A stretch of 39,173 nucleotides of DNA, from the IMG/VR virus record IMGVR_UViG_2563366802_000014; one strand, 5' to 3'. Made by a program: the position numbers and the translations under genes. The DNA is from a virus (taxonomy: Duplodnaviria; Heunggongvirae; Uroviricota; Caudoviricetes). The notes beneath the pieces were generated by a model, which was not told the origin of the DNA, made no database searches, and saw only the letters and a program-made list of their open reading frames with translations. Positions 1-39,173 of the stretch are shown here, in pieces. The first letter of the stretch is position 1; the number at the start of each line of letters is the position of its first letter.

Positions 1-516
1 ATGAAATTTAAAAAATGTCTTCTGCCTGTAGCAATGTTAGCGTCATTCACTCTGGCAGGATGCCAGTCAAATGCTGACGATCATGCCGCCGATGTTTATC
101 AAACCGATCAACTGAATACCAAACAAGAAACTAAAACCGTTAATATTATTTCCATTCTTCCCGCAAAAGTTGCCGTAGACAACTCCCAAAATAAACGGAA
201 CGCACAAGCCTTCGGCGCGCTTATTGGCGCAGTCGCTGGCGGTGTTATCGGCCACAACGTCGGGTCTGGCAGCAATTCCGGAACGACGGCAGGTGCAGTT
301 GGCGGCGGAGCTGTAGGCGCGGCAGCGGGTTCTATGGTGAATGATAAAACCTTAGTGGAAGGTGTTTCTTTAACCTATAAGGAAGGCACCAAAGTGTATA
401 CCTCTACCCAGGTGGGTAAAGAGTGCCAGTTTACGACAGGTTTAGCCGTTGTTATTACCACGACGTATAACGAAACGCGTATTCAGCCAAATACCAAATG
501 TCCTGAAAAGAGCTAA
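1..516 (+). CDS. Host outer-membrane lipoprotein, glycine-zipper type (possibly YfgH-like)
   Basis: ORF from track; N-terminal signal peptide with lipobox LAGC; Gly/Ala-rich GxxxG-type segment (GALIGAVAGGVIGHNVG); resemblance to E. coli YfgH is from memory and unverified. Confidence 0.7.
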   Translation: MKFKKCLLPVAMLASFTLAGCQSNADDHAADVYQTDQLNTKQETKTVNIISILPAKVAVDNSQNKRNAQAFGALIGAVAGGVIGHNVGSGSNSGTTAGAVGGGAVGAAAGSMVNDKTLVEGVSLTYKEGTKVYTSTQVGKECQFTTGLAVVITTTYNETRIQPNTKCPEKS

Positions 517-1288: not shown

Positions 1289-1771
1289 CTATCTGGTCAG
1301 GGTGTCATACTGTTTTTCGCAGACTCTTCCGGCTGCGGCTGCCCGGTCAGCATACTCTGCCAGTTGTCTGTTTCTCTCGAGAGATTTGCTGAGCACGTCG
1401 GCAAGCAAAACTCCGGTGTCTGCGGCTGACGTCCCAGCGCCGACAATGGCGTTATACTGCCTGAGCTGCTCACGGATGGCAAAGAGTTGTTGCTGCAACC
1501 TGCCAGCGCGAGCGGCAGCATCAAGAGCATCATTGCGCGCCTGGTCGATCCTCTGCTGAGCTTCACGTTCATTGGTCGCTTTCTCCTGTTCGTAGTGCTG
1601 ACGAACTCTCTCATCTTCAGCTTTGCGGTCTTCCTTCGCCTGCGCATACCCGGCATCGTACTGGCGACTGCCGTGTATATTCCAGGCAACCACTCCGACG
1701 ATGAACAGAGCAGCAAGCATCAACACAATAAGCATCTGTTTCCAATATGCTTTTACGAATGCCCAGATCAT
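1289..1771 (-). CDS. Spanin inner-membrane subunit (Rz-like i-spanin)
   Basis: N-terminal transmembrane helix (LIVLMLAALFIVGVVAW) then charged coiled-coil body; directly follows endolysin with ATGA start/stop overlap; contains a nested lipoprotein ORF. Confidence 0.75.
   Translation of the reverse strand: MIWAFVKAYWKQMLIVLMLAALFIVGVVAWNIHGSRQYDAGYAQAKEDRKAEDERVRQHYEQEKATNEREAQQRIDQARNDALDAAARAGRLQQQLFAIREQLRQYNAIVGAGTSAADTGVLLADVLSKSLERNRQLAEYADRAAAAGRVCEKQYDTLTR
1297..1533 (-). CDS. Spanin outer-membrane subunit (Rz1-like o-spanin), nested in the i-spanin gene in another frame
   Basis: Internal Met start in the 1297..1716 ORF gives MMLLMLPLALAGC with lipobox LAGC followed by a Pro-rich short body; nested architecture typical of Rz/Rz1. 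Confidence 0.6.
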   Translation of the reverse strand: MMLLMLPLALAGCSNNSLPSVSSSGSITPLSALGRQPQTPEFCLPTCSANLSRETDNWQSMLTGQPQPEESAKNSMTP

Positions 1772-2397
1772 ATAGCCAGCACCTTACTGGCAGTGACGTA
1801 CCGCGCGCGCCGGTCGTCGATGCCGTTCCGGCCACCATTGATAATCAGAGTTACACGTGCAATATCGCCGGTATACTTCATGCATCCTTTGCTGGCAAAG
1901 AACCACGCCGCGCTACGAGCCGCGTATTCGTCCTGCGCCAGCAGTTCAGGACTCTCCAGCAGGTCAACCTTAAGACCGTTTCCACAGTCACGATAGTTAT
2001 TCAAACCGGTAATCTGGATAAGTCCGCGACCACGGTAATTCCAGCCATCACCAGAGGCATTGTTACCCATGCGTTTGCTGTACACCAGATTTGCGATCGC
2101 GCGCTGGCGCTCAAGTGGCAATGGTGGCTCACCAGCACGGCGGCCCAGTGCGTTAGCCTGTCCCTGGGTGAGACGCCCAGCCCGAACGAAGTTAGCCAGT
2201 CCGGTGACGCTGTAGTTGAAATTTTCCTGCAACCGGTTGAAGCCACCAGACTCATGCCCGACCTGAGCAATAAACATTGCCTGATCTTCGGGTTTGCTGA
2301 TACCAAACTCTTTCATCGCAGAAGTTATATGCGAGAACCAGCGAGCGGCCAGCGCCTCGCTAATACCAGCAGCTCGCTGGAATTGTTTAATCTCCAT
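1768..2397 (-). CDS. Endolysin, glycoside hydrolase family 19 (chitinase-like lysozyme)
   Basis: Motifs QVGHESGGF and NYRGRGLIQITG typical of GH19 phage endolysins; start reassigned to internal ATG at 2397 (MEIKQF) with RBS GAGGT upstream; the track ORF extends to 2628. Confidence 0.85.
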   Translation of the reverse strand: MEIKQFQRAAGISEALAARWFSHITSAMKEFGISKPEDQAMFIAQVGHESGGFNRLQENFNYSVTGLANFVRAGRLTQGQANALGRRAGEPPLPLERQRAIANLVYSKRMGNNASGDGWNYRGRGLIQITGLNNYRDCGNGLKVDLLESPELLAQDEYAARSAAWFFASKGCMKYTGDIARVTLIINGGRNGIDDRRARYVTASKVLAI

Positions 2398-2695
2398 GTT
2401 TAGACCTCGATATTTTGAAAATATGAACAACGTTACCGCGTGTTTTAATAACCGCGGCAAGCATGACAGCGTTGATAATGACCTCAGATAAATCCACAGC
2501 CATTGGCGTGCGTAACCAGATTGCATAGACGACACGAACAGGAATACTTGCCGCAGCAACAATAAGGAAATAAGCAAGCCACCCTCCCCATCTTCGATGT
2601 TGAGAGCCGTTACGCCGGAATGTGACAACGCGAATTGCTATGCCAGTACAAATAACTGCATTGGTGATAAGCAAAAAAAACTCATGCGTTACCAT
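2387..2695 (-). CDS. Small membrane protein, holin or antiholin candidate
   Basis: 102 aa with 2-3 predicted hydrophobic helices; immediately upstream of and overlapping the endolysin start. Confidence 0.5.
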   Translation of the reverse strand: MVTHEFFLLITNAVICTGIAIRVVTFRRNGSQHRRWGGWLAYFLIVAAASIPVRVVYAIWLRTPMAVDLSEVIINAVMLAAVIKTRGNVVHIFKISRSKHGD

Positions 2696-3086
2696 CGTCT
2701 TTTCTCCCCGGAATTAACTCGCGTGGATTATCGGAACGGTGATAGAGCCAGATGCCAATACGCACGGCGACAATTGCTGACACGAATGCGCCTGCAGAAA
2801 AAACAATCCCTTTTTCAAAAGAGTCCTGCGTGATGGTAGGGATCAGGCTGGCTATGCCGATAAGAATTGATGCTGCTGGTTTGTAAAAGAGAAGGCCGCA
2901 AAGAAAGCTGATCATCGACAGGAGCACCCGGCGACGGATGGGGTACTCTACTGCAGAGGTAACAAAAATTACCGCCCCAGCCAAAGCCCCTAAAGCAACC
3001 TCCGGAGGGACACCTGCAATAACCGCAGCAAGAGAACTAACACTAAGCCACTGATTTGAAGTTTCATTGGTTAGTTGGAATGACAT
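2682..3086 (-). CDS. Membrane protein, putative holin
   Basis: 134 aa with about 4 hydrophobic segments and charged C-terminus; first gene of the lysis cassette by position. Confidence 0.5.
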   Translation of the reverse strand: MSFQLTNETSNQWLSVSSLAAVIAGVPPEVALGALAGAVIFVTSAVEYPIRRRVLLSMISFLCGLLFYKPAASILIGIASLIPTITQDSFEKGIVFSAGAFVSAIVAVRIGIWLYHRSDNPRELIPGRKDDGNA

Positions 3087-3158
3087 AACGAAACCCGTTT
3101 ATTTGCAAACACCCTGCTTCAGGAAAAGTATACCGCGCAACAACACACCATTTACGGT

Positions 3159-5621
3159 TCAATTCCCTGTTAATTGCAAAACTTGCTCTTCCAGCTTTTT
3201 AACCCTGCGTCTCATCATCGCAGATTCCAGAATCAGAGCCTCTTCATAACGGATACCGTAACATTCACCAGCCTCGACGGCTTCGCGTACCAGAACCTTT
3301 GTCTGTATAAGTGGGTAAACTCCTGCAGAATGCTCTTCTTCCGTCACATCCCTGTATTCTGCCGGGGTCTCATTCCACTTGTCATAACAGATAAATGCCA
3401 GTCGTGACACATCTATGCCTTCATTCTGAAATACACTGATAACATGCTGCGCAACTGCACCAAAGTGCCATCTTGCTCCGTCTTTACCTTTCACTTCGAT
3501 CCTGTCAAGGTACTGGTATGAAACCCATTCCACTCTTTCCCATGCGTCCAGTATTTTCTCATCAATAACCTCTGGAGCAGTCTTGAAACGCGCATCGGAC
3601 AGCACCGTAAACGCTGACTGGGTAAATCCCCCCGACCATGCACGACCAGCCAACCCAAGAGAATAAGTATTCGTTGTCGATGGTGTCATGGCTGAATCAG
3701 AAAACTGTATATATTCTGAATTTCCAGTAGATATTCGAATATTTCCATTTATTAGCGACATAGTGCCTTTAGTATTATCACTATTGAATAATTTCAATTG
3801 CGAACTTATACCGCCTCCCACAGCCAGAGATACATCGCCTTCAGCAAGCATTCTGAATTTATCTGCAGAAACAAGCGTCTGGTTAGCAAGGTTAAAATAT
3901 TTAACCCACCATTCAAAACGCCCTGACATAGTCCCAACGTACTGACCAAGCGCAGGGACGTGAACAACATTGCTATTTGTAGTGCCGTCTATACTGGAAA
4001 TACCAGTCACCGCTGATGCAGAACTCAGAATATTATTTCTGTCACCCGGATGTTTAATTTCAACAAAGTTCCTGATACACCCTTCCTCGAAGGTAACCAC
4101 GCCGGAAGAACTATACATGGGGAATATTGACGCATAATTACTGCGTGCAGCATCTAAGAAACGAATGGTTGTAGATGTCTGCAGATCTCCTGATTCATTT
4201 TTCCCATCACACCCAGTCATTAGAATATTACTGGCAATATTATTATTTCCCTGAACGGTGACGCCGTGCGCCTGCTTTGCGTCCGATTCAGAGTAATCAA
4301 CCAGCACATCCGAAATCAGGTTACCAGTCCCCTTGCCAACAACTACTGCGGCGTATTTTGGGTTGTTAGCCATTACACTGCTAATGATATTATTCGTTGG
4401 GGCAGTTTCCGTCTCAGTTCCATTGTAAACAACGTGCTGACACTCTTCACCAATAACATTGCTGACAATGTTATATTTTGCTGCTGTTTTAAGTTCCACT
4501 GCACCAAACTGAGGATAATTTCTGGCTATCACACCATCAATTAGCGTATTTTGCGATGAATCAAAAAGCACACAACCTGCTTTTTTATTATTTGCGAACC
4601 CTAAATACTCTCCTCTTATATCTCTAACAATGTAACCTGACGGAATACCATTATTCGGATAAGCGATCAAGCTAAATCCTGTTCCTCGCGTATTTGTAAA
4701 TCTGATATTTTTAACCGATACATCATGGCCACCTGAAAATGACACCTGGTGTCCCTGCACACTATCATCTGATTTATTTCCCATAATTGTTAGCGTACTA
4801 AGCATGCCACCATCGGGCATGTTAAAAACCAGATGATTACCATCTCTGTCATACTGTTTTATCGTTCCCCCACCTGTTCCGTACAAGCCACAACGTGAAA
4901 GAGAAACTAAAGATGTATTGAATACCCCTTCCGGAACAAAAACACTGCTAAACGAATGTAATGATTTTGTAAAAGCATCCTTGTTATCATTTAAGATTCC
5001 ATTTTGAGCTCCAAAATCCTTAATGCTGACACCATCACGCATCTTATCCTGGAACGTTCTGTATACCGCTCCAGAACCATACTGAATAAACCAACCAAAA
5101 CCACCAATAACTCCGGCGATTGCAGCATCGACATAATTACGCATTGAGCGATTATTTACAGCGTCCTGCTCAAGTGATGGATCGGCAAGGTTAGATATTC
5201 TGTTTTGCTTTGCATCGTAATATTTTGCAAGCAAAGATGGTTTCATCAATGCACGTCTGAACCACCCAAAACATCGCTGGATCAGCATCGTCAGGTAGTC
5301 AAATGCATCCTCATGAACTTCGGGGAAAAATTTTCCCTGATTGCGAAGATCAGTCTCCTGCACCACATCAAGCACACGCTCTATCGTGATTCGCCAGCCA
5401 GCAGCAAGCGGCGACGGAAGAACCACTGCACCGCCACTATAAGTTCCCGCCCCTGTTACCGTATAACCAGCATCCAGCACTAGTTTTGTAACGTTACCGT
5501 TAAGGTCAGACACCTGAACAACCAGGTCGGATTTTTTGAAAATACGGAAGGTATACGGAAATGATGTCGTAACGCCGTTACCTGTGTATTCGTTGTGGTC
5601 AACTTCGGTTGAGACCGTCAT
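3159..5621 (-). CDS. Tailspike / tail fiber, probable polysaccharide depolymerase with C-terminal S74-type intramolecular chaperone domain
   Basis: 820 aa; N-terminal particle-binding-like segment; central Gly/Asn-rich repeats suggestive of beta-helix; C-terminal motif LSDARFKTAPE matching the S-D-x-R-x-K autoproteolytic chaperone signature; RBS GGAG upstream. Confidence 0.75.
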   Translation of the reverse strand: MTVSTEVDHNEYTGNGVTTSFPYTFRIFKKSDLVVQVSDLNGNVTKLVLDAGYTVTGAGTYSGGAVVLPSPLAAGWRITIERVLDVVQETDLRNQGKFFPEVHEDAFDYLTMLIQRCFGWFRRALMKPSLLAKYYDAKQNRISNLADPSLEQDAVNNRSMRNYVDAAIAGVIGGFGWFIQYGSGAVYRTFQDKMRDGVSIKDFGAQNGILNDNKDAFTKSLHSFSSVFVPEGVFNTSLVSLSRCGLYGTGGGTIKQYDRDGNHLVFNMPDGGMLSTLTIMGNKSDDSVQGHQVSFSGGHDVSVKNIRFTNTRGTGFSLIAYPNNGIPSGYIVRDIRGEYLGFANNKKAGCVLFDSSQNTLIDGVIARNYPQFGAVELKTAAKYNIVSNVIGEECQHVVYNGTETETAPTNNIISSVMANNPKYAAVVVGKGTGNLISDVLVDYSESDAKQAHGVTVQGNNNIASNILMTGCDGKNESGDLQTSTTIRFLDAARSNYASIFPMYSSSGVVTFEEGCIRNFVEIKHPGDRNNILSSASAVTGISSIDGTTNSNVVHVPALGQYVGTMSGRFEWWVKYFNLANQTLVSADKFRMLAEGDVSLAVGGGISSQLKLFNSDNTKGTMSLINGNIRISTGNSEYIQFSDSAMTPSTTNTYSLGLAGRAWSGGFTQSAFTVLSDARFKTAPEVIDEKILDAWERVEWVSYQYLDRIEVKGKDGARWHFGAVAQHVISVFQNEGIDVSRLAFICYDKWNETPAEYRDVTEEEHSAGVYPLIQTKVLVREAVEAGECYGIRYEEALILESAMMRRRVKKLEEQVLQLTGN

Positions 5622-6390: not shown

Positions 6391-7086
6391 ATGACAGCTA
6401 CAAAAAGCACGTCCATTTTTTCTTTCGAATCTCAAGCCGATATACGGGTAATCGTCATTAATGGTGAGCCATGGTTTATCGCTTCAGATGTTTGTCGGGC
6501 TATAGGCATAGCAAACCATCGAGATGCTGTTCGAAAACTTGATGATGATGAGAAGGGCGTCGCTTCAACCGACACCCCTGGCGGTGAGCAAGAATCGATC
6601 ATTATCTCCGAGTCAGGCCTCTACACACTGATCCTCCGCTGCCGCGATGCGGTGACACCAGGCACTATCCCCTACCGCTTTCGCAAATGGGTTACAGGTG
6701 AGGTTCTTCCTCAGATCCGCCGCACCGGAAGTTACATTAAAAACTCGCTCCCGCAGGAAGAACGCATAAAGATGGTTGCCGACCAGGTAGCCAACGCCAC
6801 GGCGTCAGCAGTAATGCAGGCGATGAAGATAGAGAACAAAACCTACAGCGCCCCGCTGAAGCCCGGCTACCGCAGCCTGATTCACTCGCCGTCTGGTGTT
6901 CTCGGCCTGACGGAAAACTCACTGCTGATGAATCTGCTGAACCAGTTACAGGAAGACGGGCACGACGTATCGGGCGCGGCGGCGGAGCTGACCACCATGT
7001 TTTGCTACATCGTTGGTGTGAGCAAGTGCCTGCGTGATATCCAGACGCACGCGGAGTACATCAACGACAAGGCTGGGTTCTTCTGA
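6391..7086 (+). CDS. Antirepressor, Bro-N domain protein
   Basis: N-terminal segment FSFESQADIRVIVINGEPWFIASDVCRAIG matches the Bro-N / antirepressor domain; C-terminal domain paralogous to the 85-aa protein. Confidence 0.75.
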   Translation: MTATKSTSIFSFESQADIRVIVINGEPWFIASDVCRAIGIANHRDAVRKLDDDEKGVASTDTPGGEQESIIISESGLYTLILRCRDAVTPGTIPYRFRKWVTGEVLPQIRRTGSYIKNSLPQEERIKMVADQVANATASAVMQAMKIENKTYSAPLKPGYRSLIHSPSGVLGLTENSLLMNLLNQLQEDGHDVSGAAAELTTMFCYIVGVSKCLRDIQTHAEYINDKAGFF

Positions 7087-7205: not shown

Positions 7206-7841
7206 ATGCCACAACAACTGCTGAATCCGGCAAAGGTTACTGAAGTTTTCGCTCATCTGAACGAAACTCCAGACAACCGCGCCCTGTATTCAGAGTTAGT
7301 GAACGGCAACGATGTCACATCTGATGTCAAAGGCGTTTCTCTGGCTCCTGGATACCGCGTTGTCCGTGTAGACGATCGTAAGAAAGGCGAGATTCCACAG
7401 GCGCACTTCGAACTGGCATTGATAAATGACCTCACCGAAGAGGTAGTGTATTACAATCGTGTCATTATCCAACCTGACAGCTATCTTAACTGCCGACCTG
7501 TCACGCAGATATTGGTATGGAGAACCCAGAAGCCTAAGCATCGTGCTGTGCTTCATGATTTCGCCGGCATCATCTTCATGAACTACCTCTTGGAACGGTA
7601 CGATATCATCGTGTCAGATCGCAACCAGACTCATGAAGGCATGTCGTTCTGGCAGGCTCGCATGTATGACGCACTGGAACTTGGCCTCCACCTCTATGGT
7701 TACGACATGATGACATGCGAGCTGATAGAGATGAATAACGAGGAAGAGCTTGAGAAAGGTGAAACCTGGTTGTGGGGTGATGCGGAAAACTTCCAAAACA
7801 GATTGGCCATAATTTCAAAGCATAAGCTGCCAATAAAATAG
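7206..7841 (+). CDS. Hypothetical protein (211 aa), accessory gene with own operator and terminator
   Basis: ORF from track; strong RBS GAGGTG; acidic soluble protein with no motif I recognise. Confidence 0.6.
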   Translation: MPQQLLNPAKVTEVFAHLNETPDNRALYSELVNGNDVTSDVKGVSLAPGYRVVRVDDRKKGEIPQAHFELALINDLTEEVVYYNRVIIQPDSYLNCRPVTQILVWRTQKPKHRAVLHDFAGIIFMNYLLERYDIIVSDRNQTHEGMSFWQARMYDALELGLHLYGYDMMTCELIEMNNEEELEKGETWLWGDAENFQNRLAIISKHKLPIK

Positions 7842-37922: not shown

Positions 37923-39173
37923 TTATTCTCCCGCCATCCACTTCTCAAACTTCGACGGGGAGAACGGAATCAGATCCGTATGCTCCCCGTCAATCCAGGA
38001 ATCAATCATATCTGCCCACTGCTGCAACATGTAGGCGCGCTGTCTGGCGTATTCCGCTTTGTTATATACGGCGCGCACACCTTTCTGCTCATGTGCCAGA
38101 GCCTTTTCAATCCAGTCTGAAGGATAACCAGCCTCATGCAACAACGTACTGGCTGTACGGCGCATATCGTGTACGGTGAAGTCCTGAATATGCTCACCAT
38201 CTTCATTTATTATTTTCACCGTTCTGTCGATCAGTGAGTTCAACGCGGCATTAGATAATGGCTTCCGGAAATTGTAACGACCAGGAACCAGGTATTCACT
38301 TCCACCAGCGCACATCTGCAACCCAACCAATATATCCTGTGCTTGTTTAGGCAGGTAAATAACGTGCGCCCGGCTTCCCTTCATGCGGTCTGAAGGAATT
38401 GTCCATGTCCATTTTTTAAAATCTATTTCATCCCACGTTGCATTGGTGAATTCGCCTTTACGAACCATAGTGATAAGCACCAGCTTTAAAGCCATTTTCA
38501 TAGTGCCCATAGCACCAATGGCATCCAGCGTGCGGAAGAACAGACCAATTTCTTCTGGTGTCAGTGTTCGCTCTCGTGGTTTAAATATGGCGATAGACGA
38601 AGGTTTAATGTCAGCCGCAGGATTAAACAAACCATGACCACGGTCATTGGCATGACGGTATACGCTGCTGATGATCTCCCTGGCCTGCACTGCTGTTGCC
38701 AGGCCGCCGCGTTCGACAATCCGGTCACACAAATCACGAACCATCGATGTGGTAATTTCAGTCATCATTTTGTTGCCAAGAACCGGAAGTATGTCACGGT
38801 CGATCACCGCCTGCTTCATTGCGCGGGTACTGTCAGCCAGGATGACATGTTTCATATAACTGTCGGTATGTACCGCAAACGTCTCGGCACCACGAATCTT
38901 TTTGATACCGTCACGTTTAGCCGCAGCCGGTGACTGGCCTGCTTTAAGCAGCTTCTTTGCAGCAATCAGTTCTTCTCGCGCTTCTGCCAGGCTGATACCG
39001 TCACGCCCATACTGCCCGATTACCAGTGTTTCGCGGCGACCGTTGATACGGTAGTCATAGCGAAACGAGACCGTGCCTGACGTAAGCACAGCTACATACA
39101 GCCCGTCACGATCGGAGACCTTGTACAGTTTGTCCTGCGGCTTGAGGTTTTTTAATTTTGTATCGGTAAGCAC
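37923..39173 (-). CDS. int: Tyrosine integrase (P4-type); N-terminus at or just beyond the window edge
   Basis: C-terminal catalytic region HDMRRTASTLLHEAGYPSDWIEKALAH and a downstream Tyr in VYNKAEY; N-terminal arm-binding-like segment; ORF runs to the window end with GTG at the edge, so the true start may lie outside. Confidence 0.85.
   Translation of the reverse strand: MLTDTKLKNLKPQDKLYKVSDRDGLYVAVLTSGTVSFRYDYRINGRRETLVIGQYGRDGISLAEAREELIAAKKLLKAGQSPAAAKRDGIKKIRGAETFAVHTDSYMKHVILADSTRAMKQAVIDRDILPVLGNKMMTEITTSMVRDLCDRIVERGGLATAVQAREIISSVYRHANDRGHGLFNPAADIKPSSIAIFKPRERTLTPEEIGLFFRTLDAIGAMGTMKMALKLVLITMVRKGEFTNATWDEIDFKKWTWTIPSDRMKGSRAHVIYLPKQAQDILVGLQMCAGGSEYLVPGRYNFRKPLSNAALNSLIDRTVKIINEDGEHIQDFTVHDMRRTASTLLHEAGYPSDWIEKALAHEQKGVRAVYNKAEYARQRAYMLQQWADMIDSWIDGEHTDLIPFSPSKFEKWMAGE

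Follow-up and report, generated by a model that had tools for sequence, protein, structure and literature searches.

The closest described relatives of the lysis region analyzed here are those of phages epsilon15 (gp23 to gp26 plus Rz1), phiV10 (p27 to p30a), and SPN1S and of the unclassified phage TL-2011b. In each of these, the cassette lies between the tailspike region and attP-int, and the o-spanin (Rz1-like) gene has already been annotated in phiV10 and epsilon15. The window examined here, a 39,173-nucleotide stretch of viral DNA assigned to the Caudoviricetes (IMG/VR record IMGVR_UViG_2563366802_000014), holds a whole prophage of about 38 kb that runs from host yfgH/yfgI to the integrase gene. 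On its minus strand, positions 1289 to 3086 carry the lysis cassette that the original prediction had placed there, with two membrane proteins, a GH19 endolysin, and nested spanins. The five genes, their order, their overlaps, and the embedded Rz1 are the same as in epsilon15, phiV10, SPN1S, and TL-2011b, and the encoded proteins share 80 to 97% identity with their counterparts. At the DNA level, the cassette is 82 to 95% identical over 91 to 94% of the region to those of phiV10, epsilon15, SPN1S, TL-2011b, and ZX5, the annotations of which list these five genes. The gene order of tailspike, lysis cassette, att, and int is likewise that of the genus members. Judged by cassette identity and synteny, the cassette is assigned to an epsilon15/phiV10-like (Uetakevirus-type) prophage beside E. 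coli yfgI. About 10% of the complete genomes of E. coli carry it, and it is an ordinary, already annotated lysis module from a type of prophage common in this species; the predicted gene calls, gene order, and functions agree with the annotated cassettes of phiV10, epsilon15, SPN1S, and TL-2011b and with the family assignments given below. We put the probability that the region is a complete lysis cassette of an epsilon15/phiV10-like prophage, which would operate by the pathway set out at the end, at roughly 0.9.

The window prophage differs from its relatives in lacking O-antigen-modifying genes between the tailspike gene and the cassette. Elsewhere, this gap is occupied by oac (phiV10 and TL-2011b), gp21/22 (epsilon15), or gtrABC (BUCT554). 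In the window, a 72-nucleotide spacer with a weak fold (positions 3087 to 3158, minus strand; -13.5 kcal/mol) separates the tailspike stop codon from the first lysis gene. The spacer contains neither a promoter-like nor a terminator-like site, so the cassette is probably cotranscribed with the late (tail) genes. At the other end, the phage attachment site is situated between Rz and int, just downstream of Rz, so that integration puts the cassette at the prophage terminus; this accounts for the distal position that had been proposed for it. At positions 1112 to 1139 is a GC-rich hairpin that has a 12-bp stem on the minus strand and precedes a T run. It lies 150 nucleotides downstream of the Rz stop codon in host-derived DNA, and homology to phiV10 begins only at position 1162. 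The hairpin is the yfgI terminator read from the other strand. In the integrated prophage, this host terminator takes the place of the one that the phage has downstream of Rz, and transcription of the lysis genes in that state probably stops at it.

All five cassette open reading frames (ORFs) are intact, overlapping, and full length, and their start codons are conserved in the relatives compared. Each of the five proteins matched a PHROG "lysis" family (PHROG 198, 217, 181, 312, and 11621, at E values between 1e-35 and 1e-91), and the four that are detectable by Pfam scored above the curated cutoffs of PF16931 (E value, 2.9e-12), PF05449 (2.8e-27), PF00182 (7.4e-09), and PF10721 (4e-45). NCBIfam returned a match for none of the five. 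Since each ORF matches a curated family above threshold and the block as a whole closely resembles annotated cassettes, chance ORFs are excluded. The genes of the two membrane proteins overlap by 14 nucleotides, and the endolysin and Rz genes overlap by 4 nucleotides (ATGA). The end of the 102-amino-acid (aa) membrane protein gene and the start of the endolysin gene, for which an overlap had been predicted, share 11 nucleotides (CATGGAGATTAA), with the endolysin ATG at position 2397. Overlaps of these lengths suggest translational coupling.

A cassette of this kind could also be the decayed, nonfunctional remnant of a cryptic prophage, as many E. coli prophages are defective and a frameshift has joined the two membrane genes into one in a single database cluster (P0088). 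Such decay is very unlikely here, given five full-length ORFs with conserved starts, their high identity to proteins of plaque-forming phages, and a full-length prophage that extends between the att junction and the integrase gene. A programmed frameshift that fuses the two membrane genes was also considered and rejected, as a single lost G accounts for the P0088 fusion, in which the topology would be inverted.

The endolysin gene (positions 1768 to 2397, minus strand) encodes a 209-aa protein that aligns with the SPN1S endolysin (PDB 4OK7; E value, 4.6e-115) over residues 1 to 208, i.e., 208 of 209. It also matched PF00182 (36.2 bits; cutoff, 25.5), PHROG 181 (5.9e-91), and the Pseudomonas aeruginosa endolysin PaGH19Lys (PDB 9EOI; 4.5e-33). 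The window protein is identical to neither 4OK7 nor 9EOI, and many substitutions are seen in the 4OK7 alignment. Its His48-Glu49 and Glu58 are conserved in that alignment and are spaced as are H50-E51 and E60 of PaGH19Lys, which has been demonstrated to be a muramidase (PMC12329726). The SPN1S endolysin and PaGH19Lys are both GH19 lysozyme-like proteins, and the His-Glu ... Glu catalytic pair is common to them and the window endolysin. By these comparisons, the window protein is a soluble GH19 endolysin of the predicted muramidase type and an ortholog of the SPN1S endolysin. No 15- or 19-residue segment reached a mean hydropathy of 1.6, and neither a signal-anchor-release (SAR) sequence nor a signal sequence was found in the protein, as expected of a holin-dependent endolysin. 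A system of SAR endolysin and pinholin was rejected because the endolysin lacks a hydrophobic segment.

Downstream of the endolysin gene, the i-spanin (Rz-like) gene (positions 1289 to 1771, minus strand, with the stop codon at 1289 to 1291) encodes a 160-aa protein. Its sole hydrophobic segment, at approximately residues 9 to 34, forms an N-terminal transmembrane (TM) helix by hydropathy, and the remaining residues (35 to 160) make up a periplasmic domain in which 33% of the residues are charged and a single Cys is found at position 151. The protein matched PF10721 (DUF2514) and PHROG 312, "Rz-like spanin" (1.2e-59). The 91-aa o-spanin ORF (positions 1297 to 1572, minus strand, with the stop codon at 1297 to 1299) is read in the +1 frame. 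It had been described as lying in another frame almost entirely inside the i-spanin gene; the different frame holds, and the nesting is in fact complete.

The o-spanin carries the lipobox LLMLPLALAG-C26, which fits a PROSITE-type rule, and its n-region has a charge of +4. Its signal peptide is MNVKLSRGSTRRAMMLLMLPLALAG, directly followed by the lipidated Cys, and the mature protein is 66 aa long. The residue at position +2 is Ser and not Asp, pointing to outer-membrane sorting. A strong Shine-Dalgarno (SD) sequence, AGGAGA, is found 9 nucleotides before the ATG, and the protein matched PHROG 11621 (8.6e-40). The ORF, its ATG at nucleotide 200 of Rz, and the LAGC motif are kept in six of six relatives. 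Thus, the LAGC lipobox that had been read in the nested ORF is a valid lipoprotein signal, which was the feature on which the earlier proposal of an o-spanin had been made to depend. The description of the protein as Pro-rich applies only moderately, with 8 Pro among the 66 mature residues (12%); the mature protein contains two Cys beyond the lipidated one. In the Rz genes of the six relatives, the +1 frame stays open, while 8 or 9 stop codons interrupt the +2 frame. Variable sites are about half as dense in the Rz/Rz1 overlap (0.197 versus 0.389), a reduction that may simply mirror a conserved C-terminal domain of Rz.

By its helix, lipobox, nesting, and ribosome-binding site, the Rz/Rz1 pair is a two-component embedded spanin. 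Like lambda Rz/Rz1, the window spanins have periplasmic Cys that might form disulfide bonds; in its mature form, the window Rz1 exceeds lambda Rz1 in length and has a lower share of Pro. The pair falls into DUF2514/PHROG 312 and PHROG 11621, and other Rz-like families appeared only as weaker secondary matches. Orthologs of the i-spanin have been assigned to the embedded "Bcep176" i-spanin family, from which the Lambda spanin family is listed apart (Kongari 2018, PMC6139136).

The 102-aa membrane protein gene (positions 2387 to 2695, minus strand) is preceded by the SD sequence GGGGAG, 8 nucleotides upstream of the start codon. Its product is an ortholog of epsilon15 gp24 and phiV10 p28 and belongs to PF05449 (Phage_holin_3_7; 95.0 bits; gathering cutoff, 25.4) and PHROG 217. 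Hydrophobic segments were found at residues 5 to 26, 38 to 62, and 64 to 84, and an AlphaFold2 (AF2) model placed helices at residues 2 to 24, 35 to 61, and 69 to 84, albeit with low confidence (pLDDT, about 60). A basic loop follows the first TM helix, and the C-terminal tail is also basic (KTRGNVVHIFKISRSKHGD), both of which point to an N-out/C-in orientation. Hence, when the topology was checked as the original prediction had proposed, hydropathy, charge, and the AF2 model all led to three predicted TM helices in the N-out/C-in layout of a class I holin such as lambda S105. The protein has no dual-start motif of the lambda S type, with one Met at the N terminus and none after it until residue 65. 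This motif is a feature of lambda S and is not obligatory for class I holins. With a single start, any regulation must come from a different gene. We consider the 102-aa protein the most likely hole-former. The Xanthomonas X2 holin was set aside as a different protein with two helices.

The remaining gene (positions 2682 to 3086, minus strand) has only a weak SD sequence and encodes a 134-aa inner-membrane protein of PF16931 (Phage_holin_8; 47.2 bits; gathering cutoff, 26.4) and PHROG 198. This protein is the ortholog of epsilon15 gp23 and phiV10 p27, being 90% identical to both. Three hydrophobic blocks were seen by hydropathy, with the charge profile taken family-wide, and a low-confidence AF2 model (pLDDT, 60) contained helices at residues 7 to 23, 28 to 44, 50 to 79, and 90 to 117. 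Three TM helices in an N-out/C-in orientation are most likely, with a four-helix topology as the alternative; the expected membrane protein is therefore present, and its helix count is ambiguous between three and four. At E values of up to 0.1, neither membrane protein matched a Pfam family other than its own PF16931 or PF05449, and the 134-aa protein matched no characterized antiholin family and no NCBIfam model. An origin of the antiholin by gene duplication was unsupported, as an hhalign comparison of the two membrane families gave a probability of 2%. The "holin" label attached to both window proteins is an annotation derived only from position and topology. In the searchable literature, we found annotation-level statements only and no experiments on the holins of epsilon15, SPN1S, phiV10, or HK639 or on PF16931 and PF05449. 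The 134-aa protein is a candidate antiholin or co-holin.

The genomic context of the two families links them closely. Related loci were found through PF05449 proteins (single proteins from four lineages), and among the 249 with sufficient upstream DNA, which fall into 14 clusters at 50% identity, all 249 had a PF16931 gene as the direct upstream neighbor of the PF05449 gene, a one-directional count from PF05449-selected loci that says nothing on PF16931 occurring alone. Searches for homologous proteins, one of them with the PF16931 profile, brought up nothing beyond close enterobacterial relatives and thus no distant context. In tblastn searches, PF16931 and PF05449 queries gave 44 versus 229 and 42 versus 202 records, respectively, counts that reflect sensitivity and not absence, as the PF16931 matches were confined to residues 58 to 112, apparently by the low-complexity filter. 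Podovirus, myovirus, and siphovirus types all show this linkage, and the pair is combined with endolysins of four families (GH19, GH24, PF11860, and GH108). An N-terminal hydrophobic segment was absent from all 11 partner endolysins checked, which fits a canonical large-hole holin. In most lineages, the stop and start codons of the pair overlap or stand a few bases apart. Identity matrices for PF16931 and PF05449 covary (Mantel r, 0.69; not reached in any of 5,000 permutations), and their mean divergence is alike (0.356 for PF16931 and 0.357 for PF05449). Strict linkage of this kind indicates that, as judged from the sequences, the PF16931 and PF05449 genes are inherited together as a holin module, a result that extends the existing annotation. 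It also bears on the two membrane proteins having been described as either a holin-antiholin pair or a holin plus an accessory protein, a choice of wording that was appropriately cautious.

The same order of PF16931 followed by PF05449, directly ahead of a soluble endolysin gene and an Rz/Rz1 pair, is also seen in the Burkholderia P2-like phages KS5, KS14, KL3, and Mana and in Ralstonia phage RSA1, and the N4-like phages Pylas and Pollock and the lambdoid phages HK639 and Rac-SA53 have the same module layout. These modules have been annotated by their authors as "putative antiholin + holin" or as "two holins resembling epsilon15". Their proteins are only 22 to 40% identical to those of the window, and their endolysins differ, being of the GH24, PF11860 with PG_binding_1, or GH108 type. 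Characterized systems in which two separately encoded membrane proteins jointly time lysis are known from P2 (Y/LysA), P1 (LydA/LydB), T4 (T/RI), and N4 (pinholin gp63 and regulator gp62). The N4 pair is an analogy to the window pair and not a homolog; N4 combines its pinholin with a SAR endolysin, whereas the window endolysin is soluble.

These observations bear on three alternatives to a PF05449 holin accompanied by a regulatory PF16931 partner. In the first, the 134-aa and 102-aa proteins would form a heteromeric hole as an obligate two-component holin, with neither sufficient by itself and the 134-aa protein not acting as a negative regulator. Linkage in every one of the divergent clusters irrespective of virion type or endolysin family, the equal divergence and codivergence of the families, the close packing of their stop and start codons, and the "holin" labels that both carry in Pfam and PHROG are all consistent with such an arrangement, and some Gram-positive phages are reported to have two-component holins. 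Lineages also conserve their dedicated antiholins, however, so linkage fails to tell a co-holin from an antiholin, and the labels "antiholin/holin" (Pylas record) and "putative antiholin" are annotators' guesses. We regard an obligate two-component holin as possible but somewhat doubtful. The broader suggestion that PF16931 and PF05449 constitute a widespread heteromeric holin of Gram-negative phages, as a module that moves between lineages independently of the endolysin, is equally tentative.

In the second alternative, the roles would be swapped: the holes would be made by the 134-aa PF16931 protein as the holin, and the 102-aa PF05449 protein would serve as antiholin or regulator. PF16931 and PHROG 198 are themselves labeled "holin," the 134-aa gene is the first of the cassette, and its product has a conserved Gly/Ala-rich helix (G33, G37, and A38) of a type able to mediate helix packing; moreover, gene order in phage N4 is no predictor of which membrane protein is the holin. 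Nonetheless, the textbook class I layout, including a basic cytoplasmic tail, is that of the 102-aa protein, the translation of which also seems to be coupled to that of the endolysin, and wherever annotators have picked one of the two as the holin, it has been the PF05449 protein. Swapped roles are therefore unlikely. In the third, the 134-aa protein would be unrelated to lysis, for example, a superinfection-exclusion protein or another membrane "moron" protein, as serotype-conversion membrane proteins are encoded just upstream of the cassette in epsilon15 and phiV10. We consider this extremely improbable for a gene that shares the strand of the holin gene, overlaps it, and keeps its position upstream of PF05449 amid unrelated surroundings in P2-like, N4-like, lambdoid, D3-like, and Casjensviridae phages.

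Taking the 102-aa protein as the holin, lysis may proceed as follows. When induction is well advanced, one late transcript would serve for the translation of all five overlapping genes. The 102-aa PF05449 protein would build up in the inner membrane until, at a set time, it opened large nonspecific holes, with the 134-aa PF16931 protein as an obligate partner that could act either in timing (antiholin) or as a component of the hole (co-holin). The soluble GH19 muramidase would be released through the holes and degrade the peptidoglycan. Rz, predicted to be a type II protein of the inner membrane, and Rz1, the putative outer-membrane lipoprotein encoded within the Rz gene, would then form a periplasm-spanning complex, the putative role of which is to disrupt the outer membrane by fusion with the inner membrane.

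For the window itself, little of this is new, as the endolysin ortholog has already been crystallized and the spanins have already been catalogued. The embedded o-spanin gene is nevertheless overlooked by automated annotation of E. coli genomes. The biological interest lies in the role of the 134-aa protein, which in at least 14 divergent lineages of phages is found alongside a PF05449 holin. Assigning the roles of the pair would provide both of these Pfam "putative holin" families with a function and would bear on whether Gram-negative phages use obligate two-component holins.

Five intact genes, all on the minus strand, were identified at 1289-3086 by ORF listing and direct reading of the window. 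The first encodes a 134-aa membrane protein (2682-3086; PF16931 Phage_holin_8; PHROG 198, holin) and is followed by genes for a 102-aa membrane protein (2387-2695; PF05449 Phage_holin_3_7; PHROG 217, holin), a 209-aa endolysin (1768-2397; PF00182 GH19; PHROG 181, endolysin), and a 160-aa i-spanin, Rz (1289-1771; PF10721 DUF2514; PHROG 312, Rz-like spanin). The fifth, a 91-aa ORF termed Rz1 (PHROG 11621, Rz-like spanin), is nested in the +1 frame of the i-spanin gene and gave no Pfam match in a search of all five proteins. Overlaps of 14, 11, and 4 nt join successive genes, the 11-nt one confirming the original observation that the endolysin start (ATG at 2397) lies within the 102-aa gene. Shine-Dalgarno sequences precede the 102-aa (GGGGAG), endolysin (GAGG), Rz (AAGGTG), and Rz1 (AGGAGA) genes, and the first gene of the cassette has a weak one only. 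The same five genes were found in identical order, between the tailspike region and attP-int, in annotated phage records, supporting the reading of this region as a lysis cassette. In megablast searches against phage records, the block was 82-95% identical in TL-2011b, vB_EcoP_ZX5, phiV10, epsilon15, SPN1S, and others, and the cassette is present in 514-560 of 5,426 complete E. coli genomes. It is a common prophage lysis cassette that was already annotated and already known.

The E. coli host genes yfgH and yfgI occupy positions 1-1071, phage homology starts at 1162, and a P4-type integrase gene is located at the end of the window (37923-39173). The predicted distal position of the cassette is real and is the expected outcome of integration, because attP sits between Rz and int. 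Downstream of Rz, the stretch separating yfgI from the prophage end contains a GC-rich hairpin of 12 bp (1112-1139) with a T run on either side. It can terminate transcription of host yfgI on one strand and of the prophage lysis genes on the opposite one, and we infer that the phage's own terminator moved to the other prophage end upon integration. No promoter-like or terminator-like site was found between the tailspike gene and the first lysis gene, which are separated by a spacer of only 72 nt (3087-3158). The tailspike gene (3159-5621, 820 aa) encodes a beta-helix and a C-terminal Peptidase_S74 chaperone domain. In relatives, the tailspike-cassette junction carries O-antigen-modifying genes (oac in phiV10 and TL-2011b, gp21/22 in epsilon15, and gtrABC in BUCT554), whereas this prophage has none there. 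Two plus-strand ORFs, encoding a Bro-N domain protein (6391-7086) and a 211-aa protein without a Pfam match (7206-7841), are oriented antisense to the minus-strand structural genes around them and may be a moron-like insertion. The TL-2011b RefSeq record (NC_019445) also contains yfgH and yfgI (1402-1917 and 1933-2472; 100% identical to window 1-516 and 532-1071), with yfgH, a glycine-zipper lipoprotein, wrongly named "DNA methyltransferase"; this record is prophage derived and includes host flank.

Assignment of the third gene as a GH19 endolysin was borne out by both family matches and by its similarity, over the whole length, to the solved SPN1S endolysin 4OK7 (E value, 4.6e-115). The protein retains the His-Glu ... 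Glu motif, the counterpart of E51/E60 in PaGH19Lys, a biochemically characterized GH19 muramidase (PMC12329726). Direct reading of the 209-aa sequence revealed no hydrophobic segment, and a holin is therefore needed for exit from the cytoplasm.

The o-spanin candidate had been described as lying almost entirely inside the i-spanin gene in another frame; the frame was correct, but the ORF is wholly inside (1297-1572 within 1289-1771). Its lipoprotein signal is valid and of the textbook type, with four basic residues, a hydrophobic core, and L-A-G-C26, and the Ser at +2 implies outer-membrane sorting. Mature Rz1 comprises 66 aa with 8 prolines and two cysteines beyond C26, and Rz has one cysteine, close to its C terminus. 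The ORF, with its ATG at nucleotide 200 of Rz and its LAGC box, recurs in phiV10, epsilon15, TL-2011b, a Klebsiella prophage-derived phage, and Enterobacter phage BUCT554, and the frame is closed upstream of the Rz1 ATG in TL-2011b, which supports the predicted 91-aa start. Within the Rz/Rz1 overlap, the +1 frame was open in 6/6 sequences, the remaining frame contained 8-9 stops, and variable-site density was half that of nonoverlapping Rz (0.197 versus 0.389), a reduction consistent with, though short of proof of, dual coding. In Kongari et al. (2018), epsilon15, phiV10, TL-2011b, and SPN1S already appear among the phages with embedded spanins of the "Bcep176" family. The Rz1 gene is unannotated in TL-2011b, Klebsiella phage ST11-OXA245phi3.2, BUCT554, and the PGAP-annotated E. 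coli genomes, in which the four nonnested genes are labeled.

Topology prediction, proposed originally as a check on the two membrane proteins, gave one layout for the 102-aa protein and two for the 134-aa protein. The former has three hydrophobic segments, and because the first is followed by a strongly basic loop and the C-terminal tail is basic, its predicted layout is that of a class I holin, N-out/C-in. Three long helices appear in an AF2 model of low confidence, and the dual-start motif is absent from the gene. The 134-aa protein has three hydrophobic blocks, the first interrupted by a conserved Gly-Val-Pro-Pro turn; its AF2 model (pLDDT 60) has four helices, the positive-inside rule fits either three helices N-out/C-in or four helices N-in/C-in, and published homologs show the same ambiguity. 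The PF16931 and PF05449 families have no detectable relationship to each other. In a database protein cluster, P0088 (232 aa; 21 members, Logan assemblies), the 134-aa and 102-aa proteins are fused in frame. The fusion would be accounted for if a single G were lost from the GGGG run of CCGGGGAGAAAAGACGATG (about 2696-2706, minus strand), which doubles as the Shine-Dalgarno sequence for the 102-aa protein. Because its second half would then have an inverted topology, the fusion probably reflects either a sequencing error or a dead prophage.

In a first sample of widely differing phages (N4-like Pylas and Pollock, Hafnia yong2, P2-like Mana and RSA1, D3-like phi_D3, and lambdoid HK639), a PF16931 member was directly upstream of the PF05449 gene in 7/7. 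A wider sample comprised 235 IMG/VR loci gathered with four PF05449 queries, and six lineages were added (Casjensviridae MA12 and N133, Shewanella M16-3, Aeromonas LPM4, Citrobacter Chris1, and Rac-SA53); all stop-to-stop ORFs were searched with HMMs from our own two alignments. Upstream sequence of 400 nt or more was available for 249 loci, and in every one of them a same-strand PF16931-like ORF was immediately upstream of the PF05449 gene. These loci were picked via PF05449, are heavily redundant within three clades, and form 14 clusters of PF05449 protein at 50% identity. The PF05449 gene is unannotated in Pectobacterium phage MA12 (L248, 1501-1785). For 18 representatives (70% identity), the two proteins have correlated matrices of pairwise identity (Mantel r, 0.69; reached by 0/5,000 permutations) and equal mean divergence. 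Endolysins encoded downstream in these representatives fall into four or more families (GH19, GH24, PF11860 with or without PG_binding_1, and GH108 with PG_binding_3), and two lineages have no adjacent endolysin. In phi_D3 (L011, 1377-2058) and N133 (L249, 1037-1797), the pair is followed by no recognizable endolysin gene; their endolysin must be encoded elsewhere in the genome. An N-terminal hydrophobic segment was found in 0/11 annotated partner endolysins. Judged from these sequence comparisons, the pair appears to behave as a coinherited module, indifferent to endolysin type and serving soluble endolysins, the behavior that a canonical large-hole holin system should show.

The best-supported model for the cassette is the standard three-step lysis pathway, in which the holin would permeabilize the inner membrane, its action would release the GH19 muramidase, and the embedded Rz/Rz1 spanin would disrupt the outer membrane. 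Within this model, the 102-aa protein is the candidate hole-former (probability of about 0.6), given its layout and the coupling of its gene to that of the endolysin. The 134-aa protein is assigned as its putative partner, an antiholin or co-holin. The same guess was made by the authors describing KS5, KS14, and KL3, with a "putative antiholin" upstream of a DUF754 holin (PMC3091744), by the annotators of Pylas ("antiholin paired with adjacent holin"), and by the authors describing Mana, with "two predicted holin genes resembling epsilon15" (PMC8188340). No experiments on PF16931 or PF05449 family members were found in the literature searched. The recent dissection of N4 gp62/gp63 illustrates how the roles within such a pair can be worked out and how little gene order can be relied on; those proteins are unrelated to the membrane proteins of this cassette and serve a SAR endolysin. 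The role of the PF16931 partner alongside PF05449 holins concerns a large family and is not peculiar to this window.
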